A stretch of 64,000 nucleotides of DNA from Chloropicon primus (lineage: Eukaryota). Location of the stretch: NCBI GenBank assembly GCA_023205875.1, contig CP060759.1:868001-932000 (forward strand), in the 5' to 3' direction. Each line of letters begins with the position of its first letter. The stretch's first letter is position 1. Of the stretch, positions 35,980 to 64,000 are shown piece by piece. The notes beneath the pieces are model-generated. The model did not search any database, was not told the origin of the DNA, and saw only the letters and a list, made by a program, of their open reading frames with translations. Position numbers and translations under genes: made by a program.

Positions 35980-36486
35980 TCAGAATATTCCAAACCTCCG
36001 CGGGGCTGGCTTCCCGCTCCGCCCTTCGAGCTCCTCCAGCCTGCTCAGCATCTCCCTCTGCTTCAGCTCGAGGTTGGCAATGATCGCCATCTGGTGTTCT
36101 TGCAGCCTCATCCTCTTCTCCTCCTTTTCTACCCTCCGCTTCTCTTTGTTCACCCTCTTCAGCTCGTCCCTCCTGTTGCTCCGGTCGTACTCGTACAGCA
36201 GCAGGCCCCCACCAACAGTGTAGATAAAACTTTCGGAGAAGAACTTCCCCGCCAGGTTCAGCGCCCGCTCGTCGTTCAGAGGCGATATCTCTGCGCCCTT
36301 CTTCTTCTCCTGGCCCCTTGCTGCCCTGTTGATCCTCACGTTCCACCTGTGGAGGACTTGAGCCCAATCGATCGCCCGCTGCCTCACCACCGGGTGGGAG
36401 AGCATGTAATCCTGGAAGACGTACGCCAAAGGCTTCGACGCCGTCTTCACCGTCATGGTGAACACTTTGATCGCAAGCTGCGCCAT
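35980..36486 (-). CDS. OPA3: OPA3-like protein
   Basis: VKTASKPLA, PLNDERALNLAGKFFSESFIYTVGGGLLLYEY and a coiled-coil tail. Confidence 0.85.
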   Translation of the reverse strand: MAQLAIKVFTMTVKTASKPLAYVFQDYMLSHPVVRQRAIDWAQVLHRWNVRINRAARGQEKKKGAEISPLNDERALNLAGKFFSESFIYTVGGGLLLYEYDRSNRRDELKRVNKEKRRVEKEEKRMRLQEHQMAIIANLELKQREMLSRLEELEGRSGKPAPRRFGIF

Positions 36487-36822
36487 CACAACCCCCGCAC
36501 CAGCCCCCTCCACACACCGTCCTCAACCAAGGCCACCACCAGGCTCCAATGCAATCCAAACCAAACCAAACCCGTTGCCTCCCTCTCCACCAACCCCCTT
36601 CTCTCTCTCGCCACCTCCGCCACTCCAGACGGCGGCAAACTCGTCGACTCCGAGCCTTGCCCCTCCCTTGCCTCGTCCCCACCGTCCTCCGCTTCGGGAC
36701 CGGGACGACGAACTCCGCTTCGACACGACCACCTTCGCTCCGCTCCTCGACAGACAGAGAGAGAGCGCGCGCGCGAGGGTGGTGGTGGTCGTGGGGAGGC
36801 AAAGGGCGGAAGGGGGGGGAGG

Positions 36823-45000: not shown

Positions 45001-47866
45001 CAAACGACCACGAGCGCACCATGTCGTTCAGGGCAACGGGGTCGAGCATCAACTGGTAAGAAGCAATGTGGGACGGGTCTCTCTGGCGCAGGTCGTTGCC
45101 GAGGATCACCAGCTTTGAGTTGCCATCCTGGCAGCTCTTTGAGATGAAATTGGAGATCCTTTTGGAGACTGGCTCTCTGCCTACTTGGATGATGCACTCC
45201 GGCTGCAGGTACGTGCTCGCCTCGGCGTCCAAGAGTATGTGGTCCAAGTTGTAAATGACGGTGGCTTTGGAATCCATTTTGCCTGACCCGAGCTTCAGAC
45301 CCGAAGATATGTCCGGTACAAGGGGCCACCCCAGTCTCTGGGCGGTCTCTATCAGCGCCAGGTTCTCTGACGCATTGGTGGAGGTGCCCACAATGATCAG
45401 ACCCTTTTTGCACTTTGAAACCGTGTCCATGAAATCCTCCCACGGCGCGAAATTCGTGCGACCCGACTCTCCCACAATCATGTTCGTCGTGTAAGGGAGG
45501 CCGCCGTCCGCCCACGCCCTGATCTTCCCATCCAGAACCCCCCTGTCCCACTCCTCGACGATCGGCGCGAGAGGCTCCCTGTACTGAAAGTTCAAGTGCA
45601 CCGGGCCAGGCAGGTTGTGAGTCGCGTATCTGTACGCCGTGGAGAGATTCGTCAGCAGCACGTCGCTCAAAGCGAGTTCTGGGGTCGGGGCCGGAAAGTT
45701 TCTGAACCAACGGGGGAACTTGCCGTAAATGTGCATCTGGTCTATCGTTTGGTTTGCCCCCGTGCCTTGGAGCTCAGCAGGCCTATCTGCTGTCAAGACA
45801 AGGAGGGGCACATTGGACTCACTCGCCTCGACGACAGCGGGCAGCAAATTCGCCACAGCGGTGCCCGAGGTCGTGATCACAGCCGCGGGCACCCCCTTCC
45901 CTTTGCCGATTCCGAGGGCGAAGAAGCCCAGGGATCTTTCGTCTATGCACGTGATCACCTCGGCCCTGGGGTGGTTCGCTGCCGCCAACACGAGCGGCGT
46001 GGATCTGCTTCCGGGAGCGATGCAAAAGTACTTCACACCGAGCCTGCAAAGCTCTTCCACGACAAGGAAGGCAGACAGAGCATTCGCGTTCGGGAAGCTC
46101 TCCAAGGCGAGCTTGCCTTGCCGCACGATCTGCGAGAACTGCTGCACCTTCAAGTCAAGCTCCTTCCACTCCAGGTCCGGCTTCGAGCCGTCCACGATCC
46201 CGACCCCAGCGTACATCACCAAATCGTTCTCGTTCCCCCTCTCCGGCTTGTTCTGCACGAGCGCGGATCTGATCGCGACCGCGAATTCTGAGCTCGACCC
46301 GGACATCCACCCAAAAGGCCCCGAATAGAGCCCCCTGTCAAAGCTCTCCATCGAAGCCAAGGCCTCCACGGACTCCTCGCAGGGGTACCCGGCCACTGCG
46401 GGCGTAGGGTGCAGCGCGGAAAGGAAGTGAAAGTCGTTCTTGCCCCTTGCAATCTTCCCAGACAACCTCCCGTACAGGTGCTGCACGTTGACGTGCTTCA
46501 AGACCTGCTTCTCTGCTTCGATCTCAACTTCGGTGCACAGGGACTCCAGGGCCTGCTTGATCGCGTCGCGCACAACAATGAACTCGTTGTGCTCCTTCTC
46601 TGACGTCAGGAGGTCCTTTGTCACCGAGGCGTCCTTTGACACCCGCGTGGTCGCGGCCACCGCCTCGCTGACGAGGCGGCCGCCGGCCCTCGCGTACAGG
46701 CGCTCCGGGGTGTTCCCAAAGAAGGCGCTGCCGCCGTCCAAAAGCATGCAGAACTGGTAGCCTTTCCTGTCCTGGTCTTGCAGGCACGACAGCATGTGCA
46801 AGGCGTCTACGGGCTGCCTGCAGGTGACCTTGGATCTCCTCGCGAGAACGAGCTTGCTCATCCTTCCCAAGACGTCGTTCACCAAGGGGTCCCACTCCTC
46901 CTCCGTCGGGTCGTGGGTGGCCTCGGAGGCCTCCAAGTGCACCGGTGCCCTGCCGCTGGCCTTGACGCCCCTCAGCCTGCTCAGGACCGCCCGCCCTTTC
47001 GACAGAGCGCCGTCGATGGAGTCTATCCTCTCCCCCTCGGTCCTCTGAGGGAGGTTATCCCAAGCGATGTTGCAGGCCAGCGTCGAGTGAGACGGCGTCG
47101 TCCGCAGCTCTACCGATGGAATCACAAAGGTGTACGAGCCGAACTCCTCCCACTCCTCTGAGGGCGTCTGGGTCGGATCGAATCGGATTCCCCCAAAGGC
47201 CCTGACCGCGTCCCCCCCCTCGCTCAGGAACCGGCTTATCCTGTCGTAAGATTCCAGATCGAAGGGTGATCCCGGCCGCCCCTGCCAGAGGCAAGTGGAC
47301 CCCACGCAGCCCACCTCGTGGTCCGCCCCCCCTCCGGCCCCCTCCGCCAAGTCGTCCAGCTTTCCCCCGGCAGTTTGCAGGCCCTCGCCGAACGTCGAAG
47401 TCTTCGGGGAGAAGTAGATCACGGGGTGCCCCTCCTTCAAGCTCTGGCCCCTGAGCCACCCGATCGTGTCCCCCTCGCGAGGAATCGTGACCTCCAGTCG
47501 GATGACGCCGCTCTCTTCCTCCGGCCGACTCTGCGAGATGTCTCTCAGGGCCTCGGAGAGCTTCTTCGCTCCCTGGTCGAAGCTGGACGCCACCCCGAGC
47601 TCCCTGCGAGCCACGGGGACGGGGCGGGACTCCGGCGAGAGCGCCTCGGCCTCCCGAAAGAAGGTATTGTCCTCGAGCACGCCGACATTAGGCGCCGAGG
47701 CCCGCGCGGGCAAGGGCCTCTTCCCAGAGGAGGAGACCAGTCTGCTGCTGCTGGCGAGCGAGCGACACCTCCTCGACGGCGACGAGGCCGGGCCTCGAGG
47801 AGGCGCGAGTCCCTCCTTCCCCCTCGCGGTGCTCGCCCTCAGGTGTGACGCCTTCCGCTCCATCAT
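42020..47866 (-). CDS. PHYLLO: PHYLLO, fused MenF-MenD-MenC-MenH phylloquinone biosynthesis protein
   Basis: ICS (GNTPERL, LHPTPAV, EFAVAIRS); MenD (PGSRSTPL, DERSLGF, TTSGTAVAN, NRGSSGIDG); MenC (KLKVGR, DANRAW, FIEEP, ALDE); MenH (HGFLG, YSMGAR, GHCVHLE). Confidence 0.95.
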   Translation of the reverse strand: MMERKASHLRASTARGKEGLAPPRGPASSPSRRCRSLASSSRLVSSSGKRPLPARASAPNVGVLEDNTFFREAEALSPESRPVPVARRELGVASSFDQGAKKLSEALRDISQSRPEEESGVIRLEVTIPREGDTIGWLRGQSLKEGHPVIYFSPKTSTFGEGLQTAGGKLDDLAEGAGGGADHEVGCVGSTCLWQGRPGSPFDLESYDRISRFLSEGGDAVRAFGGIRFDPTQTPSEEWEEFGSYTFVIPSVELRTTPSHSTLACNIAWDNLPQRTEGERIDSIDGALSKGRAVLSRLRGVKASGRAPVHLEASEATHDPTEEEWDPLVNDVLGRMSKLVLARRSKVTCRQPVDALHMLSCLQDQDRKGYQFCMLLDGGSAFFGNTPERLYARAGGRLVSEAVAATTRVSKDASVTKDLLTSEKEHNEFIVVRDAIKQALESLCTEVEIEAEKQVLKHVNVQHLYGRLSGKIARGKNDFHFLSALHPTPAVAGYPCEESVEALASMESFDRGLYSGPFGWMSGSSSEFAVAIRSALVQNKPERGNENDLVMYAGVGIVDGSKPDLEWKELDLKVQQFSQIVRQGKLALESFPNANALSAFLVVEELCRLGVKYFCIAPGSRSTPLVLAAANHPRAEVITCIDERSLGFFALGIGKGKGVPAAVITTSGTAVANLLPAVVEASESNVPLLVLTADRPAELQGTGANQTIDQMHIYGKFPRWFRNFPAPTPELALSDVLLTNLSTAYRYATHNLPGPVHLNFQYREPLAPIVEEWDRGVLDGKIRAWADGGLPYTTNMIVGESGRTNFAPWEDFMDTVSKCKKGLIIVGTSTNASENLALIETAQRLGWPLVPDISSGLKLGSGKMDSKATVIYNLDHILLDAEASTYLQPECIIQVGREPVSKRISNFISKSCQDGNSKLVILGNDLRQRDPSHIASYQLMLDPVALNDMVRSWSFEHPEFDPSGCKIYCKYILELDHIVSNSVNSCFERADTMSEPLIARVVSEIIPRSNALFLGNSMPIRDMEMSSANRNAEFDGGLVALGSNRGSSGIDGVTSSAAGFAESLGSPVTLLIGDVSFVHDSNGLNLLSGPSSSKRAPLTIIVVNNRGGRIFEMLPVAQQIDSSVLDSCFITDPEADVSSLCRAYRIPHQLVSSKEDMIEALRKSWRSKVHNVIEISVDPQASTEFRNFVKERVKEDLSVFTSQQVFLASHMWSLGPACIEIDRLVCEKMSYPLAKELTTSSSMAKEMVKVSIQASHKDAGKVVTSFGEVSPLENLHRETLKEAQSQLACVSSILPGKRLPLSVAALDGSLERWFSLIGIEPDSLLPSVRFGLESALLDLLSSALGYSVMGGAGQGEEVEGALQQRGGLVHVIGLLSLLSSDVATVVEDAERLVSRGYRGIKLKVGRSEVEKDIEMVRLISQRFGSDLVLRCDANRAWTLDEALTFADGVKGLEIEFIEEPVKDLADLEAFTRAQTIPVALDEHLSDRLRDTAAADVRERATELMSPLSGSLDAVVLKPSVLGSVEKFKSLVDLCVDLGVKPIVSSAFDSSVGLRSLSELALYVDSVRGARFEGRPPLLHGLGTIAWNIHEPREGRLFLEEATSLPFEGWARSLVIDVEKQAGPHKALPFSSSNSIVLYDSLKCELDHDQSIHEGFMKLYKCTNGSLNGHVHASAGVAPSLAFVHGFLGDVHDWLPLISSTASTNDCYAVSLPGHSSCTFECVKSMALQNTFAFASRSMSELLDQSSLHTPILVAYSMGARIALDMVLSSPEKYSGLMIISSSPGIKDEAERENRAIKDLMLSAQIRETRVESFLDSWYKQPLFESFSRSPQFMTTVSKRAKLHESSGLADAMGGLSPGLQDSLWPKLRDLEIPLCVVCGELDPKYVSISEEMCELARESPHLQPQDVQLHVVSGAGHCVHLEAPQAVAPILSNFVSYVERSETTAYES

Positions 47867-48980: not shown

Positions 48981-51587
48981 TCAGCCTTGTCCCGAGGACG
49001 ACGACCGCCTCAGCTCGGAGGCGGCGGAGACGACCTCCTCAATGCTCTCGAAGGTCGCCCTGCCGATCAGCAGCCTCTTGCCGAACTTGAGGGCTCTCTT
49101 CTCGCAGTCCGCTCGAACCTTCGCGTCCTCGATTCTATCCATGTCTTGTACGTGTGCAACCCCGACGATCCTCCTGATCATCTTGGCCCCCGCAAACCCG
49201 AGGGTGTCCTCGAAGACCTGCCTCATGAAGGTCTCCTGGCAGATCCTCCTCGCGCCGTCGCTGTCCTGGACCTTTGCGCCGAACAAAAGCTCGGGATACG
49301 CGGAGCTATCGCACTTCTCGTTCCACATCTTCAGGAACTTGTTCTGAAACAGGTTCCAGACGTCCCTGCAGCAAGCGATGAGCCAAGCCCTGTGCTCCTC
49401 CCTCTCCCCTTGCCCGGTCTCGTGGCCGTCCGACGCAAAGAAAGCGAGGAAGAGGTTCGAGATGAAGGCCCCGATGTCGAAACCCATCGGCCCGTAAAAG
49501 GCAAACTCCGGGTCGATGACGCTCACCGTGTCTTGGGTGACCATGACGCTCCCGGTGTGAAGGTCTCCGTGCAACAGGGCTTGGGCTTGCGTGCAGAACT
49601 TGGCCTTCAGCTCCGAGATCGCATCCTTCGCTGCGGCGTCCCTTCGAAGGTCGGCGACGTCGGCGTCCAGGTAGGGCGAGTTGTGCCTGTTGTGAAACGC
49701 GTCCCCGTAAGGATCGGTGAAGATGACCTGCTCGGTCAGCTCGCACATCGGGCTGTTGTCGGCGTAGAACGCCAGCTTTTTCCTGTACTCCGCGCTTGGC
49801 AAGGCGAAGAGGGAGCTCTTGAACAGGGTCGCCGCCAGGAACGTGGACATGCAGTCCGCCAGGTGAAGGTAAACGACCCCGTCGATCAGACCGTACCTCA
49901 GGATGATGTTTGGCGGGGCGAGGTACTCCATGAAGATCGCGGAGACCTTCTTGTCGAACTTGTAGACTTGGGGCACGTGGTCGGGGCACATCTCGTGCCC
50001 GTCCACGAGAGCGGTCGTCTCGAACATGGCCCGGTCCGCCGTCAGGGGCCACGACTCGCCGATGCACCTCACGTAGGGCAGAGCCTGCTTCACCACCATT
50101 CCTCGGCCCTCGCCGCCCTCCACGATGAAGACAAAGTTGATGTTCCCGTCGCCGACTTCCTTGACGGACCAGGTGCTGGCGTCCCCGGGAATCTTGGCCT
50201 TGAGGTCAGGGTCCCCCTGGATGTACCTCTTCAGCTCTTCCTCGGTGAAGCCTTTGGCGCCAGACAGGGGCATCGGGAGCTCCGAGCCACCCCGGCCCTC
50301 GCGAGCGCTGTCGATGAAGCCCTTCATGTCGAACTCCCCGGAAGAGTTTGGCCACACCGTCCCGTACTCGGTGATGATGCCAGCGATGAGGGGGGCGGGG
50401 GTCACGTCGAAGGCGGGGTTCCAGACGCCGATGCCGTCGGCGACAACCCGCTTGCCGTCCGGAAGGTGGGTCATCTCCTCGGAGCTCCGCTCCTCGATCG
50501 GAATCCCCGAGCCGTTCGGGAGGGACAGGTCAACGGTCGAAACGGGAGCCGCGACGAAGAAAGGGACGTTGGAATACGAAGCCGAGACGGCCAGGGAGTA
50601 CGTTCCGATCTTGTTGGCCACGTCCCCGTTCGCAGCGATTCGGTCCGCACCCAGGACGACCGCGTCCACTTCCCCCTTGCTCATCAGGTAAGGCGCGGTC
50701 GAGTCCGTCACGAGCGTGGAGGGTATCTTGTCGTGCACCAGCTCGTACGCCGTCAGCCTCGCCCCCTGGTTGTACGGCCGGGTCTCCGTGCAGTACGCCC
50801 TCTCGAGGACCTTGTCGCTGTGCAGGGACCTCACGACGCCGAGCGCGGTTCCGTACGAGGACGTGGCCAGCGCTCCCGTGTTGCAGTGGGTGAGAACCCT
50901 CAAGTTCGTGTCCTTGGACCTGCGCTTCCTGCAGGCCTCCTGGATGGCCTTGGAGCCAAAGCTTCCCATGCTGAGGTTGCCTTCGGTGTCCGTCCTCATG
51001 AGCTCCTCCGACGCGGCGATGACCACCTCGGCGAGGTCCTTCGAGGTCGCGCCGGGCCCGGCTCGTGCCACCCGCTGCTTCAGGTCGCCGCAAGCGATCG
51101 CCAAGTTCACCGCGGTCGGTCTGCTGGTGACCAGGTAGGTCAGCTTCTCGTTGATCCTCGACGCCATCTCCGAGGGGTCTGGGAAAGGAGAACCATAATG
51201 TTGTTAATATATGTAATCCGAAGTCAGTCCGTCGGGTCAGGCCCGGGGGGGGGGGATGCTTACCTTGGGGGAGGTCAGCGTTCGCGAGCTCGACCGCGAG
51301 GGACAGAACTCCCGCAATCGCTATCGCGGGGGCGCCCCTCACCACCATCGAATTGATCATCGTCCAACCATCTAAAGCGCAAATTAGAGAAAGAGAAAGA
51401 GAAACACACTTTTAGTTCGCGAGCGAACGAACACGCGCTTGAGATCTATACCTTTTGAGTCCCTGACGTCGAGGTACGTCTTCTCGTAAGGGATGACCCT
51501 TTGGTCCAGGAGCTTGAGCGTGGCACGACCCGATGCACCGTCCCTCTCGTATATGATCGCCCGCAGGCCGTGGTCCTCTGGCGCCAT
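48981..51587 (-). CDS. Fused methylthioribose-1-phosphate isomerase (MtnA/MRI1) + methylthioribose kinase (MtnK); introns 51372-51451 and 51179-51263
   Basis: LLDQR, MVVRGAPAI, SRPTAVNL, THCNTGALAT, ETRPYNQG, NKIGTY, NPAFDVTP, then in frame EVGDGNINFVF, KQALPY, HGDLHTGS, IDPEFAFYGP, RRIVGVAHV. Confidence 0.93.
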
Positions 51588-51731: not shown

Positions 51732-51849
51732 TCTAAGTTTGAGTTTCGTCGTTAGTAGGGAGAGGTCCATCCCGTTTCGTCGTTAGTAGGGAGAGGTCCA
51801 TCCCGTTTTCTATTTTTAGAGGTCTCCCTACTAATCGACGAAACTTAGA
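51732..51849. repeat. 31-bp tandem duplication plus inverted copy
   Basis: TTTCGTCGTTAGTAGGGAGAGGTCCATCCCG at 51744 and 51775; inverted TCTCCCTACTAATCGACGAAACTTAGA at 51823-51849. Confidence 0.85.
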
Positions 51850-51892
51850 ATGATTCTAGGGGGAACTTGAAGCGTCACATGACGATGTACGG

Positions 51893-51955
51893 TGGAATTC
51901 TCCCCCTTCTGGAATTCTCCCTTCTGGAATTCTCCCCGTGGAATTCTCCCTTCTG
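51893..51955. repeat. Four tandem ~15-18 bp TGGAATTCTCCC units
   Basis: TGGAATTCTCCC(C)(TTC) x4 upstream of the MYB gene. Confidence 0.9.
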
Positions 51956-52031
51956 TCACTGGGCGTCACGTGCCCAGGAGAGAGAGCGAGAGAGAGCGAG
52001 AGAGAGAGAGAGAGAAAGAGAGAGAGACACC

Positions 52032-53021
52032 ATGGCGCCTCAGTCGTCAAAGACAAAGCACAAAGGCAGATGGAGTGCGGAGGAAGACAGGAAGCTCACC
52101 AGCGTCGTATCATTGTTTGGGAAGGGAAATTGGTCCAAAATCTCGCGCTATTTTAATCGTACTGGCAAGCAGTGTCGAGAGAGATGGCTGAATAAGCTTC
52201 AAATCGGCCTGAAGAAAGGGTGGACGAAGAAAGATGACCTGAGACTGATCGAGTTGCATCGACGATATGGCAACAAATGGGCCCTCATCAGCAAAGGTTT
52301 CGAAGGACAGAAGACGGAGAACATGGTTAAGAACCGATTTAATTCGACCCTGCGTAGGTTACAAGGCCGTAAGTCGAGTCGTCAGCGTAACGACGGACCA
52401 CTTTCCTTGTATACACAGTCACTTCTCACGAAGACTGATGTCAAATCGGAGGAAACCAACGACACAGCTCCAAGCTCAGACATGAGTGACTCAGTTTGCA
52501 CTGCACAAGAGTTTCTTCTTGATGACAACGGTGGCACATCAGCGGAGTGGGACCTTTTCGGTGACTTCTATCACCTTGAAAGCAGTCCTTATCAACCACC
52601 GTTCATGCAATCAGAGCAAGAGTTTTTTGAGTTTGCTACTGAAGGAGAGCTGTTTGGAGAGAAATCAGTCGTTGTATCGCGAAAGAGACACCACAGATAT
52701 GGACAATTCTTCCTGCTCTCTTCACAGTTGGAGTTCAATGAAGCAATTAAGATGTTGTTGAACAGAGGGACTGTGAGCTATTTTGAAGTTGCTTTGGATG
52801 CAGCGGCAGTTTCGGCAGACCCAGACAAAGTCGACGCGATTTTATCTGCAGTCCACAACCTTTTGCCATCAGTTCATCAGCTAAAGACTTGCGATTTAGC
52901 GGCCTTTTTGAGCGAGGCAGTCTTGAAATGTGCCTTGATTACTGATGAGAAGGGAAGCTGCTCCAAAGTTCAAAAGTCTTTTCAGGACTCCGTTGCAGAT
53001 GTTATGACCGCGATGTTATGA
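52032..53021 (+). CDS. R2R3-type MYB transcription factor
   Basis: KGRWSAEEDRKL..GNWSKIS..RTGKQCRERWLNKL and WTKKDDLRLIELHRRYGNKWALIS..TENMVKNRFN; ATG at 52032 after a (GA)n leader. Confidence 0.9.
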   Translation: MAPQSSKTKHKGRWSAEEDRKLTSVVSLFGKGNWSKISRYFNRTGKQCRERWLNKLQIGLKKGWTKKDDLRLIELHRRYGNKWALISKGFEGQKTENMVKNRFNSTLRRLQGRKSSRQRNDGPLSLYTQSLLTKTDVKSEETNDTAPSSDMSDSVCTAQEFLLDDNGGTSAEWDLFGDFYHLESSPYQPPFMQSEQEFFEFATEGELFGEKSVVVSRKRHHRYGQFFLLSSQLEFNEAIKMLLNRGTVSYFEVALDAAAVSADPDKVDAILSAVHNLLPSVHQLKTCDLAAFLSEAVLKCALITDEKGSCSKVQKSFQDSVADVMTAML

Positions 53022-53237: not shown

Positions 53238-56200
53238 ATGCCAGAACCAAAGGTTAGGCAAGCTGTCCGTGGCGATGCAATAAATGTTCGCAAAATCGAT
53301 CACCTCACCTGGCCTGAGAATCTGTGGCTTAAAGACAAGGACTTTCAGTTCTACTTCGAATCGTATCTCGAGGGTCAGTTCGTAGTGGAGTGTGGCGACA
53401 GAGTCGTTGGCTGTCTATTCACTCAAAGACTTGACAACGAGTCAACTCTTCTTGATGATGGAAAGACAAGCTCAGACTTTACATCTTTGCACCAGGGCGA
53501 GGGCAAGGTGATTCAGTTGATAAGGATATCTGTCCTCCCCCAGTACGAAGGTTTAGGTTTAAGCCATGCCCTTATCGAAGGATCATTGGAACACTTAAAA
53601 AAACAACAGGGATCAATTGAAAAGGTTGTTGCAGTGACAAGGTGTTCTCAGTTCAAAGCAGCTGGCGCATACCCATACGATGACTACGTCTATAGCGGTC
53701 GCGATCCCACGATAGCTTTCCATGTTGGTAGGGGTGCTGAAGTTGTGAAGATACTTCACAACTTTCGGCTTGAAGACACTCAAAATGATGGACACGGTGT
53801 TCTTATTCGATACAGCTTGAAGACAAACACCGATTCCAACTTTGACCAGTCAACTAGTCAGCTTCAGTTTAGTCGTGATGACGCCGAATCTCGTATCAAA
53901 GACGCCGTTCGGAGAATAGCACAATCTTCTGAAGAGCCTGCTCTAGATGAACCATTGATAGAGTATGGTTTAGATTCCATTGACTTTAGCGGTTTAAAAG
54001 CCAGCTTGGAAAACATCTTTTCCATCAGCTTGGAAGCTACCTTCTTGTTTAGCTATCCAACCGTCCAACAGATCGCGGCCTACGTGGTAGATCAAAATAA
54101 AAATACCGGTAGCAAAGCCAAAGCTTTGGAAGTTGAACTCCCTGATGGATCCTTGACAAAAAGGAGCCCCAATTACTCAGAAGCTATTTGGATAATAGAC
54201 ACTGCTGAAAGACTTCCCGCTGCCATTGAAGTTGGCGGATTTAAAGAGGCAGTTTCTCACGTCCCTTTGAACCGGTGGGACCCCACCGGTTTTGAAGAAG
54301 TCATTGCCCAACAAAGTGGTGTCACTTCTGGTTCTTTTGGTATCTTCCTGCACCTTCATGAGTGTGATATTCATGGGATATCACAGAAAGAGGCTCTTCA
54401 GACCGACCCACAGCAATTGCTCATCATAGAAAATGCTCAGAATCTGAAACGTGCTTCTTGTCCAAAGCACGACGGGGAAATCGGTGTAGCTGCTGCAGTG
54501 TCGAACTTTGACTTTGCAGTACTTCAACAGAAGATCAAGCCGGTTGAGTCGCAGACACATAGCACCCTCATTGGTTCAGACCTGTCTGTCTGCTGCGGGA
54601 AAGTCTCGTACCTTTTGAATTTCAATGGGCCAAGTTATGTGGTGAATACAGCATGCTCCTCTTCTCTTGTGGCTACAAATGCAGCGATGCACTGTCTCAG
54701 GAATTTTGAGTGTCAGCTTCACTTCGTTCTCTCTGCAAGCACTATTCTATCCCCCCACGTAATGGTGGCTTACGCCAAAATGGGAATGCTGTCTATCGAT
54801 GGGAGGTGTCAATCCTTCGACCAGCAAGCGAACGGATACGTGCGAGCAGAAGCAAGCGTTGGTGTAAACCTGGGAATGGCCTCTGGTTCAGGAGTTGCCA
54901 TTGTTGCATCATCCGTACAACAAGATGGAAGGAGCGCAGGACTCACAGCACCAAATGGAATTGCTCAGCAAAAGCTACTGCTTCGCACTTCAATGGATGC
55001 TGATGTGCCTTTGAGTGACATTCAACACCAGGAGATGCACGCAACTGGTACACCGCTCGGCGACCCCATTGAGTACCAAGCATTCAAGCAAGCTCTTAGA
55101 TCGTCGTCACATGAAATGGGCTTTATCATATCAGTGAGTGGCACGAAAGCCATAGCAGGGCACGGGGAGCCATGTGCAGGGCTTTCGAGTACTCTCCGAA
55201 TCATCAAATCATCATTGAAAGCAAAGAAAATAGTCAACAACCGATTGAGATCAATGAACAAACACTTTGGCCCTGATATGATGGGGAGCAACCTCATTTT
55301 TCCTACTGTGAATGGATCAGCAGCACTCAGTAGCTCATACGCAGGTATCAATTCATTTGCATTCCAAGGCACGATCGCCCGCCTTTTGCTCAAATTTGAT
55401 AAAGGCAATGAAAGACCAGCGACACGCAAGGCACTCTGCAAGAAGCTCATCTCCTTCAAATGCGTTTCATATTGTAGCAGCAAAGTATTGGTAAGCAGCG
55501 GATCAAAAAAACTTTGCTTACATCTGAAACCAAAATTTGGACAGTTCACAATAGAAGGAAAAAGAGTCTTAACATTTGCCCAGATGTACTCATATCTTCA
55601 AATCGGCTACAATGATCTTTGCCAAGAGACCACCAAACAGAAAGCTGTAACGGCCGATATGGTTCAAACAAGAGTCATGCACATCGACTACAGGCAACAT
55701 CAAATGATGCAATGTACGGTGGACACAGTGACCGGACAAGTAGAACTCCAATCCCAAGCAGAAGGGAAAAGTCACAAAACCTGGAATCTCCAAGCCATAT
55801 GGAAGAAACCAGTCAAACACTTGCCAGAGCGCCAAACCACACACCAAGATCAAAACGAGTGGAACAAAGGCATCATGGGTATAATGCACCACAATCAAGC
55901 TGCACACACAGCCAATGCAATTGCAACAGTCGCCAAAACATCAAATGACCTCTATGATTACACCGTCAACCCAGCTGTGGGCGACGCAAATCTACAGCTT
56001 GGTGCCGTGGAAAGCGTGATTCGTTTGGCGAGCCAAGACAATGCTAGTCAAGAAACGCAAGTACCAACGGGTTGCCATGCCTATTACATGGGCGACCAGT
56101 CAGATGCTCCAGCAGCATACACGGCAGTCTGTCAGAATGGCTCCCAAGCTGGCATCTCAAGCCATAGACTAAAAAGTCTATGTGAAGAGATCAACTGTGC

Positions 56201-59200
56201 CTCAGTTCTCAATTTGCAAACCAAAGCAGCATTTAAATTGCAAAGTGCTTTGAATGCAGCCAACAGCCAACAGAAAGTGCAAGAAAAGGACATGCTCTTA
56301 TCGGCTTTGGTGTGGTCAGCCTGCTATGCGACCCCTCTGGACTGCGCTGCTCATCAAAATGCAATAATCGCAGGATCAAGGGACGCACAAGAGAATGTGC
56401 TTCTCGTGAAACTTGGAGACGCGCAATCCAATTTGGAGCATCCTCTCAAGATTGCATGCAGAAATGCAGGAGCTCTCTATTCATCATCTCATGTGGATAG
56501 TCCTGAAATGCAAGAGTACCTGACAAACACCTCAAAGTCGGTCCACGTTGTTTGCCTTGTCTCGCACCAAGCAAATGTTGCAAAGCAACTTGTAGGCCTT
56601 GCCAACCTTGTCAAAGCGGTGAACAAGTCAAACATGGAATCACCTAGTATCACTGTGGTTTTCTTGGATTCACAAACGACCATGAACGTCCAACACAACA
56701 CCTCAAAAGCATTGTGGGGAGCATGCAGGACGATGAGAATGGAGTACCCATCCTTGCAATTGACAACCATTCAAATGGATGCACACATGGACAAGAGTCA
56801 GGCAGCTCTTTACCTCTTGTCAGAAATCCAAAACAAACATTCAACTGAAAAGGAAGTCATGTACAAGAATGCGACACGATACATCAATACCATTGTGGAG
56901 AAGTATCCTTCTGCATCACAGCATCTCTCCCTCAATCCACATCTGGAAAAGCTCCAGAGAGGATCATATGTTATCACAGGAGGTCTTGGAGGTCTGGGTC
57001 TTGTGACCGCGCAACTTCTTGCAGATATGGGAGCGACAAGCATATCTCTCCTCTCAAGAAGTGGCATCATTCAGCGCACGGACCAAAACCTTAATGCCAT
57101 TCTCGACAAAGTAAGAGAGAAAGCCAATGTGGAGGTTATCGCATGTGATGTGAGCAAAGAAGATCATGTGCGCAATCTCTACACAAAGCAAAACCATCCT
57201 TGTGTGGGAATTATACATGCTGCCGGTGTCTTACGAGATGGCCTTGCTGCAAATCTCAACCATACTCAGGTCCAACAGGTATTTGACCCAAAGATCAGTG
57301 GCGCTTTGCATTTGCATCACAACACACTCCTGCAGCCATTGCAGGTATGCATCATGTTCTCCTCCATAGTGTCACTCTATGGAAACATTGGTCAGACCTC
57401 CTACAGTGCAGCAAATACCTATCTTGATACTTTGGCTGCTCTAAGGCAAAACCAAGGCCTTCCTGCGGTCAGCATACAATGGCCAGCAATATCTGGCATT
57501 GGCATGTGGGAAGGTCTATCAAGTGTCCACAAGAAAACATTTGAATTCAACCTTCCCGTAAAGGCCGTTATATCGTGCCTTCAAAATCTTGTGTCAAAGA
57601 AATCCTTCACAATCACAACCGTGACGATTTTACCAAGGTGGATGATCTACGGAACCAGGGAAAAGAACAAAGCACACATGGCAGCAAAGGCGGATCCAAA
57701 TGAAATCCAGCGGCAGCCAACAAGCGGAAGAAGCCAGAGCGTCAAATTCACATCTGTAGCTGTGTTGACTTCCCAAGTGCAAAATACAATTGAGCAAGCA
57801 GTCATAGATACTATTGGAGAAACCATTGACACGGAAAGTCCTCTCATGGAAGCAGGAGTCGACTCGCTTGCTTCATCAGAGCTTATCAACAAGATCAATG
57901 ATGACATGGGAACCTCTTTGGGGCCCACAATCTTGTTCGACTATCCAACAATTCAGGATCTCACACAGCACCTTGTGCAGACCCTCAAAGGACCTGACGC
58001 TACAGATCACGCCATTGAGGCTGTGGAGCGCATCCCAAACCATGATCCAATGCATGCTGTGACAACAACAATGCTGTCTTCTGCTATCAGATATCCAAAC
58101 CATACAAATTCAAACCAAAGGTTCTTGAATGTCCTTAACAACCAGTCCGAGCTTTGCTCAGTCACTCCACTTCAACGGTGGGACCGCATGGATTGGTATT
58201 CCTCACAGGGCTATGGGAACGACATCTATGTGCCCTTTGGATACTGGCTTCCAGACCTCTGGACCTTCCAACCTGATGCACTAAGCATGACTTCCGCAGA
58301 ATCCCTTTATGTGGACCCACAAGGAAGGAAGCTCCTGGAGGTCACATGGGAGGCCATGTACAACACTCCTCTATCTTCAAACAAACATGCCAGAACAAAT
58401 ACAGGTGTTTATGTAGGATGTTGTCAACAGGATTTCCAAAAAAATATCCATCACATGACAGACCCAGGGAAACAAATACTGGCATCCATAAGCTTCCTTT
58501 GTGGTCGTGTTTCTTATGTGATGGGCTTCAAAGGACCATGCATCAGCATAGATACTGCATGTTCCTCCTCGCTTGCAGCAACTCACTTGGGCAGGACAGC
58601 CATTATAGCACATGAATGTGATACAGCAACAATAGCAGGAACAAATATAATGATTGCACCACAAACAACGCAAGCTATTTGCAATTTGCAAGCCCTTGCC
58701 GTGGATGGAAGATGCAAAACCCTTGATGCAACTGCAAATGGATATGGCCGTGCCGAAGCTATTGCTGCCGTAATCATTGCAAATGCAAACGATACACACA
58801 CGAACATGCTCAAAATGCCTGTCAACATCGTTGCATCTTTTGTGAACCAAGATGGAAGATCAAGCAGTCTGACTGCACCAAATGGGCCATCACAGTCAAC
58901 ACTCATCTCATCTGCTTTGAGGCAAGCAAATCTGAAGCCAGAACAAATCAACCATGTTGTCATGCATGGAACAGGAACACCTCTGGGTGACCCAATTGAG
59001 GTTGGTGCCCTGGGACAAGCATTCCATTCAGATGACAAAGTTCATATGCTTGCACTTGCTGCAGTCAAGGTTGCTTTCGGACATACAGAAGGAGCAGCAG
59101 GACTCACGGGCCTACTTAGTGCAATGCAGTCGTGTAGCACGTTATGCATTCAACCGGTTACCGCATGCAGAAACATGAATGTTCATGTGCAGGGTGCAAT

Positions 59201-62200
59201 CAAAGATCATAGAGATGGGCACAAAAGAGTCACTTCTGCAAGGATTCAACAAGGTCCTTGGTCATTCACTTGTGATGAAAACAATGACAAAGCAATCGCA
59301 GGGACAAGCTCGTTTGGCATGAGCGGAGTCAACAGTCACGGGGTTGTTGAAGCAAAACTTGCAGGCCATACTTACAATGCGCAGAGTATTGCATGGAACA
59401 ACAAGCAAGTACTCTTCCCAATGGTTGGGTGTGCATTTGTGAAGGCTTCCTACAAAGCATCTACAAAACAACACCAAGTATTTGCGATTCAAATCAAGGA
59501 CCACAACCTGCTCGACCACATGGTCATGGGGAAATCCATTTTACCAGGTGCAGGATTCATGGAACTGTCATCAGCCTCTGCACGAGCTATGCTCAATCCA
59601 AACGTCTTACGTGATCTCAAACCAGTGCTTGCAAAGATATCAATTCCAGCCCCGATGCAGTTGGAACCAAACAAACATCAAATGATGCAATGTACGGTGG
59701 ACACAGTGACCGGACAAGTAGGACTGAAAAGTCACAAAACCTGGAATCTCCAAGCCATATGGAAGAAACCAGTCAAACACTTGCCAGAGCGCCAAACCAC
59801 ACACCAAGATCAAAACGAGTGGAACAAAGGCATCATGGGTATAATGCACCACAATCAAGCTGCACACACAGCCAATGCAATTGCAACAGTCGCCAAAACA
59901 TCAAATGACCTCTATGATTACACCGTCAACCCAGCTGTGGGCGACGCAAATCTACAGCTTGGTGCCGTGGAAAGCGTGATTCGTTTGGCGAGCCAAGACA
60001 ATGCTAGTCAAGAAACGCAAGTACCAACGGGTTGCCATGCCTATTACATGGGCGACCAGTCAGATGCTCCAGCAGCATACACGGCAGTCTGTCAGAATGG
60101 CTCCCAAGCTGGCATCTCAAGCCATAGACTAAAAAGTCTATGTGAAGAGATCAACTGTGCCTCAGTTCTCAATTTGCAAACCAAAGCAGCATTTAAATTG
60201 CAAAGTGCTTTGAATGCAGCCAACAGCCAACAGAAAGTGCAAGAAAAGGACATGCTCTTATCGGCTTTGGTGTGGTCAGCCTGCTATGCGACCCCTCTGG
60301 ACTGCGCTGCTCATCAAAATGCAATAATCGCAGGATCAAGGGACGCACAAGAGAATGTGCTTCTCGTGAAACTTGGAGACGCGCAATCCAATTTGGAGCA
60401 TCCTCTCAAGATTGCATGCAGAAATGCAGGAGCTCTCTATTCATCATCTCATGTGGATAGTCCTGAAATGCAAGAGTACCTGACAAACACCTCAAAGTCG
60501 GTCCACGTTGTTTGCCTTGTCTCGCACCAAGCAAATGTTGCAAAGCAACTTGTAGGCCTTGCCAACCTTGTCAAAGCGGTGAACAAGTCAAACATGGAAT
60601 CACCTAGTATCACTGTGGTTTTCTTGGATTCACAAACGACCATGAACGTCCAACACAACACCTCAAAAGCATTGTGGGGAGCATGCAGGACGATGAGAAT
60701 GGAGTACCCATCCTTGCAATTGACAACCATTCAAATGGATGCACACATGGACAAGAGTCAGGCAGCTCTTTACCTCTTGTCAGAAATCCAAAACAAACAT
60801 TCAACTGAAAAGGAAGTCATGTACAAGAATGCGACACGATACATCAATACCATTGTGGAGAAGTATCCTTCTGCATCACAGCATCTCTCCCTCAATCCAC
60901 ATCTGGAAAAGCTCCAGAGAGGATCATATGTTATCACAGGAGGTCTTGGAGGTCTGGGCCTTGTGACCGCGCAACTTCTTGCAGATATGGGAGCGACAAG
61001 CATATCTCTCCTCTCAAGAAGTGGCATCATTCAGCGCACGGACCAAAACCTTAATGCCATTCTCGACAAAGTAAGAGAGAAAGCCAATGTGGAGGTTATC
61101 GCATGTGATGTGAGCAAAGAAGATCATGTGCGCAATCTCTACACAAAGCAAAACCATCCTTGTGTGGGAATTATACATGCTGCCGGTGTCTTACGAGATG
61201 GCCTTGCTGCAAATCTCAACCATACTCAGGTCCAACAGGTATTTGACCCAAAGATCAGTGGCGCTTTGCATTTGCATCACAACACACTCCTGCAGCCATT
61301 GCAGGTATGCATCATGTTCTCCTCCATAGCTTCACTCTATGGAAACATTGGTCAGACCTCCTACAGTGCAGCAAATACCTATCTTGATACTTTGGCTGCT
61401 CTAAGGCAAAACCAAGGCCTTCCTGCGGTCAGCATACAATGGCCAGCAATATCTGGCATTGGCATGTGGGAAGGTCTATCAAGTGTCCACAAGAAAACAA
61501 CACCGTTCACGCTGTCTGTCGAGGGAGCTATCACATCTCTCAATAAGATTCTGAAGGACCTTTCATCCTTCACAATCACAACCGTGACGATTTTACCAAG
61601 GTGGATGATCTACGGAACCAGGGAAAAGAACAAAGCACACATGGCAGCAAAGGCGGATCCAAATGAAATCCAGCGGCAGCCAACAAGCGGAAGAAGCCAG
61701 AGCGTCAAATTCACATCTGTAGCTGTGTTGACTTCCCAAGTGCAAAATACAATTGAGCAAGCAGTCATAGATACTATTGGAGAAACCATTGACACGGAAA
61801 GTCCTCTCATGGAAGCAGGAGTCGACTCGCTTGCTTCATCAGAGCTTATCAACAAGATCAATGATGACATGGGAACCTCTTTGGGGCCCACAATCTTGTT
61901 CGACTATCCAACAATTCAGGATCTCACACAGCACCTTGTGCAGACCCTCAAAGGACCTGACGCTACAGATCACGCCATTGAGGCTGTGGAGCGCATCCCA
62001 AACCATGATCCAATGCATGCTGTGACAACAACAATGCTGTCTTCTGCTATCAGATATCCAAACCATACAAATTCAAACCAAAGGTTCTTGAATGTCCTTA
62101 ACAACCAGTCCGAGCTTTGCGCAGTCACTCCACTTCAACGGTGGGACCGCATGGATTGGTATTCCTCACAGGGCTATGGGAACGACATCTATGTGCCCTT

Positions 62201-64000
62201 TGGATACTGGCTTCCAGACCTCTGGACCTTCCAACCTGATGCACTAAGCATGACTTCCGCAGAATCCCTTTATGTGGACCCACAAGGAAGGAAGCTCCTG
62301 GAGGTCACATGGGAGGCCATGTACAACACTCCTCTATCTTCAAACAAACATGCCAGAACAAATACAGGCGTTTATGTAGGATGTATGTACACAGAGTACC
62401 CACATATCCTGAAGGGGGCAAACATGGCAAACAATGCTGGTACAGGTACTGGAAGCGGCATTAGCTTCCTTTGTGGTCGTGTTTCTTATGTGATGGGCTT
62501 CAAAGGACCATGCATCAGCATAGATACTGCATGTTCCTCCTCCCTTGCAGCAACTCACTTGGGCAGGACAGCCATTATAGCACATGAATGTGATACAGCA
62601 ACAATAGCAGGAACAAATATAATGATTGCACCACAAACAACCCAAGGTGTTTGCAATTTGCAAGCCCTTGCCGTGGATGGAAGATGCAAAACCCTTGATG
62701 CAACTGCAAATGGATATGGCCGTGCCGAAGCTATTGCTGCCGTAATCATTGCAAATGCAAACGATACACACACGAACATGCTCAAAATGCCTGTCAACAT
62801 CGTTGCATCTTTTGTGAACCAAGATGGAAGATCAAGCAGTCTGACTGCACCAAATGGGCCATCACAGTCAACACTCATCTCATCTGCTTTGAGGCAAGCA
62901 AATCTGAAGCCAGAACAAATCAACCATGTTGTCATGCATGGAACAGGAACACCTCTGGGTGACCCAATTGAGGTTGGTGCCCTGGGACAAGCATTCCATT
63001 CAGATGACAAAGTTCATATGCTTGCACTTGCTGCAGTCAAGGTTGCTTTCGGACATACAGAAGGAGCAGCAGGACTCACGGGCCTACTTAGTGCAATGCA
63101 GTCGTGTAGCACGTTATGCATTCAACCGGTTACCGCATGCAGAAACATGAATGTTCATGTGCAGGGTGCAATCAAAGATCATAGAGATGGGCACAAAAGA
63201 GTCACTTCTGCAAGGATTCAACAAGGTCCTTGGTCATTCACTTGTGATGAAAACAATGACAAAGCAATCGCAGGGACAAGCTCGTTTGGCATGAGCGGAG
63301 TCAACAGTCACGGGGTTGTTGAAGCAAAACTTGCAGGCCATACTTACAATGCGCAGAGTATTGCATGGAACAACAAGCAAGTACTCTTCCCAATGGTTGG
63401 GTGTGCATTTGTGAAGGCTTCCTACAAAGCATCTACAAAACAACACCAAGTATTTGCGATTCAAATCAAGGACCACAACCTTCTGAGCTACATGGTCATG
63501 GGGAAATCCATTTTACCAGGTGCAGGATTCATGGAACTGTCATCAGCCTCTGCACGAGCTATGCTTAATCCAAACGTCTTACGTGATCTCAAACCAGTGC
63601 TTGCAAAGATATCAATTCCAGCCCCGATGCAGTTGGAACCAAACAAACATCAAATGATGCAATGTACGGTGGACACAGTGACCGGACAAGTAGGACTGAA
63701 AAGTCACAAAACCTGGAATCTCCAAGCCATATGGAAGAAACCAGTCAAACACTTGCCAGAGCGCCAAACCACACACCAAGATCAAAACGAGTGGAACAAA
63801 GGCATCATGGGTATAATGCACCACAATCAAGCTGCACACACAGCCAATGCAATTGCAACAGTCGCCAAAACATCAAATGACCTCTATGATTACACCGTCA
63901 ACCCAGCTGTGGGCGACGCAAATCTACAGCTTGGTGCCGTGGAAAGCGTGATTCGTTTGGCGAGCCAAGACAATGCTAGTCAAGAAACGCAAGTACCAAC
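53238..64000 (+). CDS. Giant modular trans-AT type I polyketide synthase, 3'-partial: GNAT-ACP-KS-DH0-KR-ACP-KS-DH-KR-ACP-KS-DH0-...
   Basis: My translation from ATG 53238; all checked motifs lie in one frame: GNAT VVAVTR..AFH; ACP GLDS (53976); KS NTACSSS (54654), HATGT (55038), GHGE (55161); KR TGGLGGLG, LRD (57231), YSAAN (57402); ACP GVDS (57864, 61827); KS DTACSSS (58560, 62532); DH HxxxGxxxxP (59517); no AT domain between KS and DH. Confidence 0.93.
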   Translation, partial: MPEPKVRQAVRGDAINVRKIDHLTWPENLWLKDKDFQFYFESYLEGQFVVECGDRVVGCLFTQRLDNESTLLDDGKTSSDFTSLHQGEGKVIQLIRISVLPQYEGLGLSHALIEGSLEHLKKQQGSIEKVVAVTRCSQFKAAGAYPYDDYVYSGRDPTIAFHVGRGAEVVKILHNFRLEDTQNDGHGVLIRYSLKTNTDSNFDQSTSQLQFSRDDAESRIKDAVRRIAQSSEEPALDEPLIEYGLDSIDFSGLKASLENIFSISLEATFLFSYPTVQQIAAYVVDQNKNTGSKAKALEVELPDGSLTKRSPNYSEAIWIIDTAERLPAAIEVGGFKEAVSHVPLNRWDPTGFEEVIAQQSGVTSGSFGIFLHLHECDIHGISQKEALQTDPQQLLIIENAQNLKRASCPKHDGEIGVAAAVSNFDFAVLQQKIKPVESQTHSTLIGSDLSVCCGKVSYLLNFNGPSYVVNTACSSSLVATNAAMHCLRNFECQLHFVLSASTILSPHVMVAYAKMGMLSIDGRCQSFDQQANGYVRAEASVGVNLGMASGSGVAIVASSVQQDGRSAGLTAPNGIAQQKLLLRTSMDADVPLSDIQHQEMHATGTPLGDPIEYQAFKQALRSSSHEMGFIISVSGTKAIAGHGEPCAGLSSTLRIIKSSLKAKKIVNNRLRSMNKHFGPDMMGSNLIFPTVNGSAALSSSYAGINSFAFQGTIARLLLKFDKGNERPATRKALCKKLISFKCVSYCSSKVLVSSGSKKLCLHLKPKFGQFTIEGKRVLTFAQMYSYLQIGYNDLCQETTKQKAVTADMVQTRVMHIDYRQHQMMQCTVDTVTGQVELQSQAEGKSHKTWNLQAIWKKPVKHLPERQTTHQDQNEWNKGIMGIMHHNQAAHTANAIATVAKTSNDLYDYTVNPAVGDANLQLGAVESVIRLASQDNASQETQVPTGCHAYYMGDQSDAPAAYTAVCQNGSQAGISSHRLKSLCEEINCASVLNLQTKAAFKLQSALNAANSQQKVQEKDMLLSALVWSACYATPLDCAAHQNAIIAGSRDAQENVLLVKLGDAQSNLEHPLKIACRNAGALYSSSHVDSPEMQEYLTNTSKSVHVVCLVSHQANVAKQLVGLANLVKAVNKSNMESPSITVVFLDSQTTMNVQHNTSKALWGACRTMRMEYPSLQLTTIQMDAHMDKSQAALYLLSEIQNKHSTEKEVMYKNATRYINTIVEKYPSASQHLSLNPHLEKLQRGSYVITGGLGGLGLVTAQLLADMGATSISLLSRSGIIQRTDQNLNAILDKVREKANVEVIACDVSKEDHVRNLYTKQNHPCVGIIHAAGVLRDGLAANLNHTQVQQVFDPKISGALHLHHNTLLQPLQVCIMFSSIVSLYGNIGQTSYSAANTYLDTLAALRQNQGLPAVSIQWPAISGIGMWEGLSSVHKKTFEFNLPVKAVISCLQNLVSKKSFTITTVTILPRWMIYGTREKNKAHMAAKADPNEIQRQPTSGRSQSVKFTSVAVLTSQVQNTIEQAVIDTIGETIDTESPLMEAGVDSLASSELINKINDDMGTSLGPTILFDYPTIQDLTQHLVQTLKGPDATDHAIEAVERIPNHDPMHAVTTTMLSSAIRYPNHTNSNQRFLNVLNNQSELCSVTPLQRWDRMDWYSSQGYGNDIYVPFGYWLPDLWTFQPDALSMTSAESLYVDPQGRKLLEVTWEAMYNTPLSSNKHARTNTGVYVGCCQQDFQKNIHHMTDPGKQILASISFLCGRVSYVMGFKGPCISIDTACSSSLAATHLGRTAIIAHECDTATIAGTNIMIAPQTTQAICNLQALAVDGRCKTLDATANGYGRAEAIAAVIIANANDTHTNMLKMPVNIVASFVNQDGRSSSLTAPNGPSQSTLISSALRQANLKPEQINHVVMHGTGTPLGDPIEVGALGQAFHSDDKVHMLALAAVKVAFGHTEGAAGLTGLLSAMQSCSTLCIQPVTACRNMNVHVQGAIKDHRDGHKRVTSARIQQGPWSFTCDENNDKAIAGTSSFGMSGVNSHGVVEAKLAGHTYNAQSIAWNNKQVLFPMVGCAFVKASYKASTKQHQVFAIQIKDHNLLDHMVMGKSILPGAGFMELSSASARAMLNPNVLRDLKPVLAKISIPAPMQLEPNKHQMMQCTVDTVTGQVGLKSHKTWNLQAIWKKPVKHLPERQTTHQDQNEWNKGIMGIMHHNQAAHTANAIATVAKTSNDLYDYTVNPAVGDANLQLGAVESVIRLASQDNASQETQVPTGCHAYYMGDQSDAPAAYTAVCQNGSQAGISSHRLKSLCEEINCASVLNLQTKAAFKLQSALNAANSQQKVQEKDMLLSALVWSACYATPLDCAAHQNAIIAGSRDAQENVLLVKLGDAQSNLEHPLKIACRNAGALYSSSHVDSPEMQEYLTNTSKSVHVVCLVSHQANVAKQLVGLANLVKAVNKSNMESPSITVVFLDSQTTMNVQHNTSKALWGACRTMRMEYPSLQLTTIQMDAHMDKSQAALYLLSEIQNKHSTEKEVMYKNATRYINTIVEKYPSASQHLSLNPHLEKLQRGSYVITGGLGGLGLVTAQLLADMGATSISLLSRSGIIQRTDQNLNAILDKVREKANVEVIACDVSKEDHVRNLYTKQNHPCVGIIHAAGVLRDGLAANLNHTQVQQVFDPKISGALHLHHNTLLQPLQVCIMFSSIASLYGNIGQTSYSAANTYLDTLAALRQNQGLPAVSIQWPAISGIGMWEGLSSVHKKTTPFTLSVEGAITSLNKILKDLSSFTITTVTILPRWMIYGTREKNKAHMAAKADPNEIQRQPTSGRSQSVKFTSVAVLTSQVQNTIEQAVIDTIGETIDTESPLMEAGVDSLASSELINKINDDMGTSLGPTILFDYPTIQDLTQHLVQTLKGPDATDHAIEAVERIPNHDPMHAVTTTMLSSAIRYPNHTNSNQRFLNVLNNQSELCAVTPLQRWDRMDWYSSQGYGNDIYVPFGYWLPDLWTFQPDALSMTSAESLYVDPQGRKLLEVTWEAMYNTPLSSNKHARTNTGVYVGCMYTEYPHILKGANMANNAGTGTGSGISFLCGRVSYVMGFKGPCISIDTACSSSLAATHLGRTAIIAHECDTATIAGTNIMIAPQTTQGVCNLQALAVDGRCKTLDATANGYGRAEAIAAVIIANANDTHTNMLKMPVNIVASFVNQDGRSSSLTAPNGPSQSTLISSALRQANLKPEQINHVVMHGTGTPLGDPIEVGALGQAFHSDDKVHMLALAAVKVAFGHTEGAAGLTGLLSAMQSCSTLCIQPVTACRNMNVHVQGAIKDHRDGHKRVTSARIQQGPWSFTCDENNDKAIAGTSSFGMSGVNSHGVVEAKLAGHTYNAQSIAWNNKQVLFPMVGCAFVKASYKASTKQHQVFAIQIKDHNLLSYMVMGKSILPGAGFMELSSASARAMLNPNVLRDLKPVLAKISIPAPMQLEPNKHQMMQCTVDTVTGQVGLKSHKTWNLQAIWKKPVKHLPERQTTHQDQNEWNKGIMGIMHHNQAAHTANAIATVAKTSNDLYDYTVNPAVGDANLQLGAVESVIRLASQDNASQETQVP
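55696..64000 (+). repeat. Tandem ~3.96-3.97 kb near-identical PKS module repeats (2 full copies plus the start of a 3rd)
   Basis: AACATCAAATGATGCAATGTACGGTGGACACAG recurs at ~55696, ~59674 and ~63646; offsets 3960-3978 bp, all multiples of 3; identical short shadow ORFs recur in the track. Confidence 0.97.

Follow-up and report, generated by a model that had tools for sequence, protein, structure and literature searches.

The DNA considered here, referred to as the window, is a stretch of 64,000 nucleotides from the green alga Chloropicon primus (contig CP060759.1, positions 868,001 to 932,000 of the forward strand). A polyketide synthase (PKS) gene occupies its 3' end, preceded by genes for telomerase reverse transcriptase (TERT; 35896-40665, + strand) and PHYLLO (42020-47866, - strand), both intronless and recognised by eye, and by a gene at 48981-51452 (- strand) in which domains of methylthioribose-1-phosphate isomerase type (IF-2B family) and kinase type, the kinase fusion being recognised by Pfam, are joined in one gene with two introns according to assembled contigs. 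The published C. primus table lists TERT (06p45070), PHYLLO (06p45090), methylthioribose kinase (06p45110) and a polyketide synthase (A3770_06p45120) in this same order (PMC6731263, Supplementary Data 2 and 3), and the match was made by order, not by sequence. One PKS gene is listed at this locus, followed by an oxidoreductase, and 12 PKS genes are listed for the species, with low GC noted in PKS regions (PMC6731263). For A3770_06p45120 the neighbours and the low GC thus agree with the window, whereas PMC6731263 was found to offer neither a domain map nor a GNAT, a repeat or a product for it and names low GC for chromosomes 3, 5 and 8, not 6. The domains of the reading frame are as follows.

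53238..64000, + strand: trans-AT modular type I PKS reading frame, open at the 3' edge, 3,587 aa within the window
53280..53825, + strand: CurA-type GNAT starter domain with Thr134, Arg135 and His162 (CurA 2REE, E 3.6e-28; GphF 6MFC, E 8.2e-18)
53892..54086, + strand: loading ACP, LDSI with Ser247 (PF00550)
54180..55427, + strand: KS1, divergent, with Cys and both His (TACSSS, HATGT, GHGEP); start approximate
55470..56267, + strand: DH1, predicted dead; degenerate N-half without the His motif, C-half copied from DH2
56961..57617, + strand: catalytic part of KR1, with GGLGGLG, LRD and Lys/Ser/Tyr/Asn (PF08659; alignment to solved KRs)
57795..57974, + strand: ACP1, VDSL (PF00550)
58053..59372, + strand: KS2, loop CCQQ, downstream of the predicted dead DH1
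59463..60227, + strand: DH2, predicted active; His2094 in HxxxGxxxxP, Asp2236 in DANLQ
60921..61577, + strand: KR2 (Pfam; alignment to solved KRs)
61758..61937, + strand: ACP2, identical to ACP1 in protein sequence
62016..63344, + strand: KS3, loop CMYT, downstream of the predicted live DH2
63435..63998, + strand: DH3, predicted dead; Tyr3418 replaces His

An earlier note on this DNA had described a frame without evident introns opening at ATG 53238 and holding KS, DH, KR and ACP motifs to the window edge, with KS running straight into DH and with lower GC than the first 52 kb, and this description stands throughout. The frame at 53238..63998(+) translates into 3,587 codons with 0 stops, and Pfam searches with seven overlapping segments spanning the 3,587 aa found KS three times, KR twice, ACP three times, the DH N-terminal half twice and GNAT once, with no match to the acyltransferase (AT) family. 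A pattern scan of the frame turned up neither a GHSxG motif nor a match to the ER pattern, and the linker between KS2 and DH2 is too short for an AT since the SSFGMSG near the end of KS2 (aa 2024) lies only 70 residues ahead of the DH2 His (aa 2094). No GT-AG junction occurs inside the frame in the assembled contigs of probable RNA runs, and GC is 0.46 in the frame and 0.46-0.47 in the block from ~52 kb, compared with 0.53-0.64 earlier. The resulting order is GNAT-ACP-KS1-DH°-KR-ACP-KS2-DH-KR-ACP-KS3-DH°, that is, multiple KS-(DH)-KR-ACP modules on one chain without an integrated AT in the 3,587 aa visible. TACSS, H(A/G)TGT and GH are present in KS1, KS2 and KS3, as in elongating KSs. The N-terminal GNAT, the near-identical repeats and the lack of the catalytic His in two of the three DHs had gone unmentioned in the earlier note.

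The evidence supports a real green-algal modular type I PKS that lacks an AT and is probably expressed. The note's view that the PKS was hidden does not survive, as the frame simply lacks a stop in the window, a database protein is 99.8% identical to it and the gene stands in the published table. Its expectation of a very large assembly line is borne out to a minimum of 3,587 aa and three modules, and nothing is shown beyond that. This database protein, P0002 (3,391 aa in the protein collection), agrees with the frame over 3,381 aa apart from four residue differences, followed by a frame change at aa 3380; no longer version was found among the best 120 homologues per search, with lengths of 808-5,000 aa. 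A large AT-less PKS is ordinary in a green alga because the class is known: the chlorophyte enzymes OluPKS3, OtaPKS1, MicPKS2 and CrePKS1 are likewise multimodular and AT-less, with modules 89-98% similar (89-98% in OluPKS3) and KS and ACP domains 98-100% similar (PMC4661987). By contrast, the main text of that paper never mentions GNAT, and no description of specificity patches was found in the paper. While the annotated gene and its class are therefore already known, the GNAT starter and the patch-programmed repeats are judged to be new.

PKS residues 15-196 match the GNAT of CurA (E 3.6e-28), 7UCI/7UCL, of which 7UCI is taken here to be SxtA, and GphF. Thr134 and His162 align with the VVAVTLC and FHQIHGA segments of CurA and presumably correspond to Thr355 and His389 in CurA numbering; among relatives, the Thr134 column holds Thr or Ser in 150/151 sequences and the His162 column His in 150/151. 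Both His389 and Thr355 are essential in the CurA GNAT (EryM preprint), and members of this subfamily, which require His together with Thr/Ser, decarboxylate malonyl-type ACPs (EryM preprint; PMC10127204). With its homology to CurA and GphF and its conserved essential residues, the domain belongs to the CurA subfamily and would be expected to decarboxylate malonyl-ACP. CurA, GphF and SxtA share with it the fold family, the conserved Thr and His, and the GNAT-ACP-KS order, whereas the window GNAT starts at residue 15, has no preceding methyltransferase or lid region and sits on algal-type KSs. No methyltransferase lies ahead of the GNAT, and this absence is the reason for proposing acetyl as the starter.

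Two further entries, P0364 and P0365/P0512, begin with the same GNAT-ACP at ~61% identity to the window, and their GNATs form with that of the window a trio with 100% support. KSs are present in 102 of the 150 GNAT matches, and none of the 162 KSs in these matches has its best match in the algal set. A CurA-type GNAT loader was not found reported for green algae in the literature searched, which yielded one cyanobacterial paper on such loaders and, among 25 listed of 163 further papers, none that mentions Chloropicon, and the supplementary domain table of PMC4661987 may bear on this; 'GNAT' has 0 occurrences in the main text of PMC4661987 and in the PKZILLA preprint, and PMC11350588 has no GNAT passage. 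A GNAT starter would carry a priming strategy known mainly from bacteria into chlorophytes.

Downstream of DH1 the gene is built from repeats whose boundary lies in the middle of the DH, and five patches interrupt their near identity.

55698..59675, + strand: repeat unit A (DH C-half, structural KR, KR1, ACP1, KS2, DH2 N-half)
59676..63647, + strand: repeat unit B (DH C-half, KR2, ACP2, KS3, DH3 N-half)
63648..64000, + strand: start of a third copy, 351/351 nt identical to unit B
DH C-half patch: six-codon indel between units A and B
57540..57602 (copy 1) and 61500-61565 (copy 2), + strand: KR C-terminal patch; 16/22 codon columns differ, no known role
58422..58487 (copy 1) and 62385-62459 (copy 2), + strand: KS dimer-interface-loop patch of 25 columns, starting in gatekeeping positions 1-4
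58668..58679 (TQAI) and 62640-62651 (TQGV), + strand: KS micro-patch
63480-63491, + strand: DH His patch of four codons, LLDH versus LLSY, differing by five base changes of which two are silent

The unit of ~3,978 nt is 97.5% identical to the next copy at the nucleotide level over 4,351 columns. Outside the five patches, 1,265/1,267 codon columns encode the same residue with only 5 silent differences, two of which lie near the KS loop patch (one adjoining it, the other six codons upstream); inside the patches, 10/12 same-residue codons carry a silent difference. Because silent changes concentrate inside the patches, these seem to be of old date, whereas the scaffold seems to have been homogenised recently; the patches may be old islands or imported tracts. 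The identical runs between the units measure ~1,230, 830 and 560 nt, and a run of at least 833 nt arose in 0/10,000 random scatterings of the differences. The best KS identity within the protein is 0.945, compared with a median of 0.68 for 351 multi-KS proteins, and modules of other C. primus PKS fragments are 97-99% identical.

Gene conversion in bacterial PKSs, including GRINS, similarly leaves long near-identical tracts across modules (PMC8256042, PMC12391348). GRINS are defined as repeats of >500 bp with >80% identity in which the mean absolute GC and TA skews both exceed 0.15. The window repeats have the length and identity and fail the skew test, with GC skews of 0.098 and 0.094 and TA skews of 0.163 and 0.161 over the whole units. 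A further difference from GRINS is that the kept differences, not the converted tracts, seem to be the functional carriers.

The first of these kept differences concerns dehydration. DH2 has both catalytic residues and scores 38.9 bits with the HMM of the DH N-half, compared with 29.4 for DH3 and -2.3 for DH1, which has no Pfam match. Loss of the DH His usually abolishes activity, with exceptions, and His-to-Phe exchange inactivated just 4/6 monensin DHs. The LLSY form that removes the His from DH3 is known from the window sequence alone. An LRD motif, admitted in place of LDD as a B-type motif, is present in both KRs; this suggests that KR1 and KR2 are B-type and would give a D-hydroxyl, hence a trans-alkene after dehydration.

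The second concerns the KS loop. In alignment, the patch in the KS loop falls on VMYE of 7ZMA, which corresponds to positions 1-4 of the dimer-interface loop. Met at position 2 of this loop selects the dehydrated intermediate, alkene over hydroxyl; this rule was established in cis-AT systems of actinomycetes, in which selectivity fell from 148 to 3 on swapping the four residues but was not reversed (PMC11321453). For a comparison with this rule, 885 KS domains were taken from fetched proteins, and 6 from P0001/P0002, 4 identical and 358 first-in-protein domains were removed. In these counts, which are not independent since the sequences are related and whose classes are HMM and pattern calls, Met occupies position 2 in 110/142 KSs after KR and a His-bearing DH, 3/212 after KR alone, 0/10 after a His-less DH, 1/16 after ER and 30/137 without an upstream KR. 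The corresponding figures for Gln at position 4 are 21/142, 84/212, 4/10, 1/16 and 28/137; the modest share of Gln after KR alone, its occurrence after a live DH and the Met of KSs without an upstream KR count against a programming role of the loop.

KS3, with Met-Tyr at positions 2-3 after a KR and a DH with His and Asp, carries the signature of the enoyl-accepting VMYH type. KS2 falls outside the TNGQ type, as CCQQ has the Gln and the lack of Met in common with it and no Asn at position 2; KS2 may nevertheless work like that type. The pairing of KS2 and KS3 with their upstream DHs agrees with 364 other KSs, although the other C. primus KSs downstream of a Tyr-DH carry IEHM. As in the VMYH/TNGQ pair described around PikKS3 (PMC11321453), the KS behind an active DH has Met at position 2, while the KS behind a hydroxyl-leaving module lacks Met and has Gln at position 4. 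In contrast to that system, KS2 and KS3 are a natural pair with a 94.5% identical scaffold and an exchanged loop of 22-25 residues, CCQQ replaces TNGQ, and the enzyme is trans-AT and eukaryotic.

A FastTree phylogeny with SH-like support, built from 116 hand-picked rows of the 885, places KS2 and KS3 together with KSs of Bathycoccus, Picochlorum and further KSs in a clade with 99% support, while KS1 forms a long branch of unsure placement. The 24 other rows of this clade have Met (21) or Val (3) and never Cys at position 2; 11 of them follow a His-DH, 1 follows a KR alone, 5 lack an upstream KR and 7 are first-in-protein. Against the rule, the clade member P0199 carries Met although no DH was detected alongside the KR upstream of it. 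As Met dominates the clade (21/24), CCQQ is the likely derived state, and KS2 is likely an enoyl-type KS body that has lost its gatekeeping Met.

The same tree separates KS2 and KS3 from all 51 rows labelled bacterial, which argues against reading the low-GC block as bacterial DNA, whether contamination or recent transfer. This idea draws on the GC of 0.46 versus ~0.58, the absence of introns and a GNAT family mainly known in bacteria; yet low GC has been described for PKS regions of C. primus (PMC6731263) and the block contains a eukaryotic Myb reading frame, so that a bacterial origin is largely refuted. A separate, older origin may apply to the GNAT alone.

The observations are best accounted for, with a probability of about 0.6, by a trans-AT PKS whose modules are near-identical except for a few patches that likely program the chemistry of each module, although only two KS/DH pairs are visible. 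In the proposed mechanism, a stand-alone FabD-type AT would load malonyl onto every ACP; three fabD-labelled genes and one PPTase gene are listed elsewhere in the published C. primus table (PMC6731263). The GNAT would decarboxylate malonyl-ACP to provide an acetyl starter. Module 1, with its dead DH, would leave a D-hydroxyl accepted by KS2 through CCQQ, module 2, with its live DH, would make a trans-alkene that KS3 selects through the Met of CMYT, and module 3, with His changed to Tyr, would again leave a hydroxyl. The predicted early chain is CH3-CH(OH)-CH2-CH=CH-CH(OH)-CH2-CO-S-ACP. Recurrent gene conversion or unequal crossing-over would keep the copies uniform, with selection maintaining the old differences in the KS loop and at the catalytic His of the DH.

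A more specific formulation, put forward tentatively and with slightly less than even confidence, sees a natural KS-gatekeeper swap in a eukaryote, in which a >99% uniform scaffold under ongoing conversion carries a four-codon DH switch and a KS loop of ~25 residues by which an enoyl-selecting KS becomes an acceptor of hydroxyls. Priming of the line would fall to a CurA-type GNAT decarboxylase, for which no report in green algae was found. Since KS2 and KS3 differ almost solely in the gatekeeping loop, they provide a ready-made minimal test of how much a KS must change once the upstream DH is lost, which matters for assembly-line engineering. Together, these features predict the first eight carbons of a metabolite of an abundant marine picoalga.

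The same enzyme might also carry patches that do not program anything, having been imported or having drifted after duplication, with promiscuous KSs and a DH2 that may serve several modules. CCQQ fits none of the described motifs, the KR patch lacks a known role, four-residue swaps merely weaken gatekeeping (PMC11321453) and trans-AT lines are often non-colinear (PKZILLA preprint). Against this stand the location of the largest KS difference, which within ~4 kb starts in the four gatekeeping positions, the four-codon patch that strikes the catalytic DH His, and a KS/DH pairing that obeys the rule of 364 other KSs. Patches without a programming role are consequently regarded as unlikely.

The contigs bear on both the integrity and the activity of the patch-programmed gene. 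X1 and X2 are probable RNA runs, as their contigs skip the introns of the neighbouring gene. Over the unique 5' part of the PKS, X1 covers 53475-55440 and X2 54169-55440 with zero differences, and depth was present in 20/30 bins for X1, 20/30 for X2, 11/30 for X3 and 2/30 for X4, which consists of two short pieces and was left out. A contig of X2 joins CCQQ, TQAI and His in the combination found in unit A. The listed RNA contigs carry the CCQQ, TQAI and His forms and none of CMYT, TQGV or Tyr, although contigs drop variants and 23 records lie outside the listing. Contig loose ends, judged by eye and in frame, include a third form of the KR patch, FTLAVTDVV, at 61504, another pre-ACP linker (61729/57766) and a different sequence past the ACP linker (62021), each extending for at least 86 letters. 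They point to a third KR-ACP at the least, with another domain after it, past the window edge or, alternatively, to a paralogue.

The patchwork could partly be an assembly artefact, with collapsed repeats or mixed diploid haplotypes and patches that are unlinked in any one gene. P0002 ends ahead of the Tyr patch and has TQAI in both copies; because it lacks TQGV and is frameshifted, an assembly error or allelic difference affects the locus. Other C. primus PKS records are also fragments (97-99% identical) with unrelated-looking C-termini, and the copy-B forms are missing among the listed RNA contigs. On the other hand, KR patches, CCQQ, His and CMYT follow one another in P0002 as in the window over 3,379 aa, the patches are in frame with silent changes, unlike sequencing errors, and the X2 contig links the three forms of unit A, all of which makes an artefact improbable.

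The frame change in P0002 would also suit a decaying gene with one frameshifted allele, two dead DHs and low expression, the published RNA-seq depth of the PKS being 4.59 against 18-55 for several neighbours (PMC6731263). Decay is quite improbable, however, given that all 3,587 codons are open and the KS, KR, ACP and GNAT motifs are intact; moreover, the X1 and X2 contigs have no gap at the equivalent position, possibly in another copy, and reveal further open variants.

Several minor observations concern the surroundings of the PKS and related records. The fall in GC starts at ~51.7-52.0 kb. Directly upstream of the PKS, inside the low-GC block, lies a two-repeat Myb reading frame (51879-53021, + strand; likely start ATG 52032) for which the published table has nothing between 06p45110 and 06p45120; its nearest Atlas clusters are plant Myb factors, and it is a possible linked regulator of the PKS. 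It had zero coverage in runs X1-X4, which proves nothing. At the edge of the block, 51743-51834 holds a perfect 31-nt tandem duplication, unique within the window, the core of which pairs with an inverted copy at a distance of 28-59 nt and which could be a mobile-element end. Immediately after the PKS, beyond the window, the table places 06p45130, an 'alcohol dehydrogenase' (K07119) with an RNA depth of 5.21, similar to the 4.59 of the PKS, and weak matches to PKSs of Ostreococcus; it is a candidate for an enoyl reductase acting in trans.

Three C. primus PKS records, P0148, P0242 and P0243, hold module fragments that are 97-99% identical, have Tyr in place of the DH His and show frameshifted-looking C-termini, and adjacent annotated PKS genes of this species may be single giant genes split by assembly errors. 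The Bathycoccus entries P0122 and P0175 have back-to-back KS domains with nearly no linkers, six KSs in P0122, and are possibly odd gene models. Far upstream in the window, 3416-5584 (+ strand) encodes a 722-aa TnpB/Fanzor-like protein (Cas12f1-like TNB, E 8.4e-18; HTH_OrfB_IS605), and 25 IS605-like genes are reported for the C. primus genome (PMC6731263).
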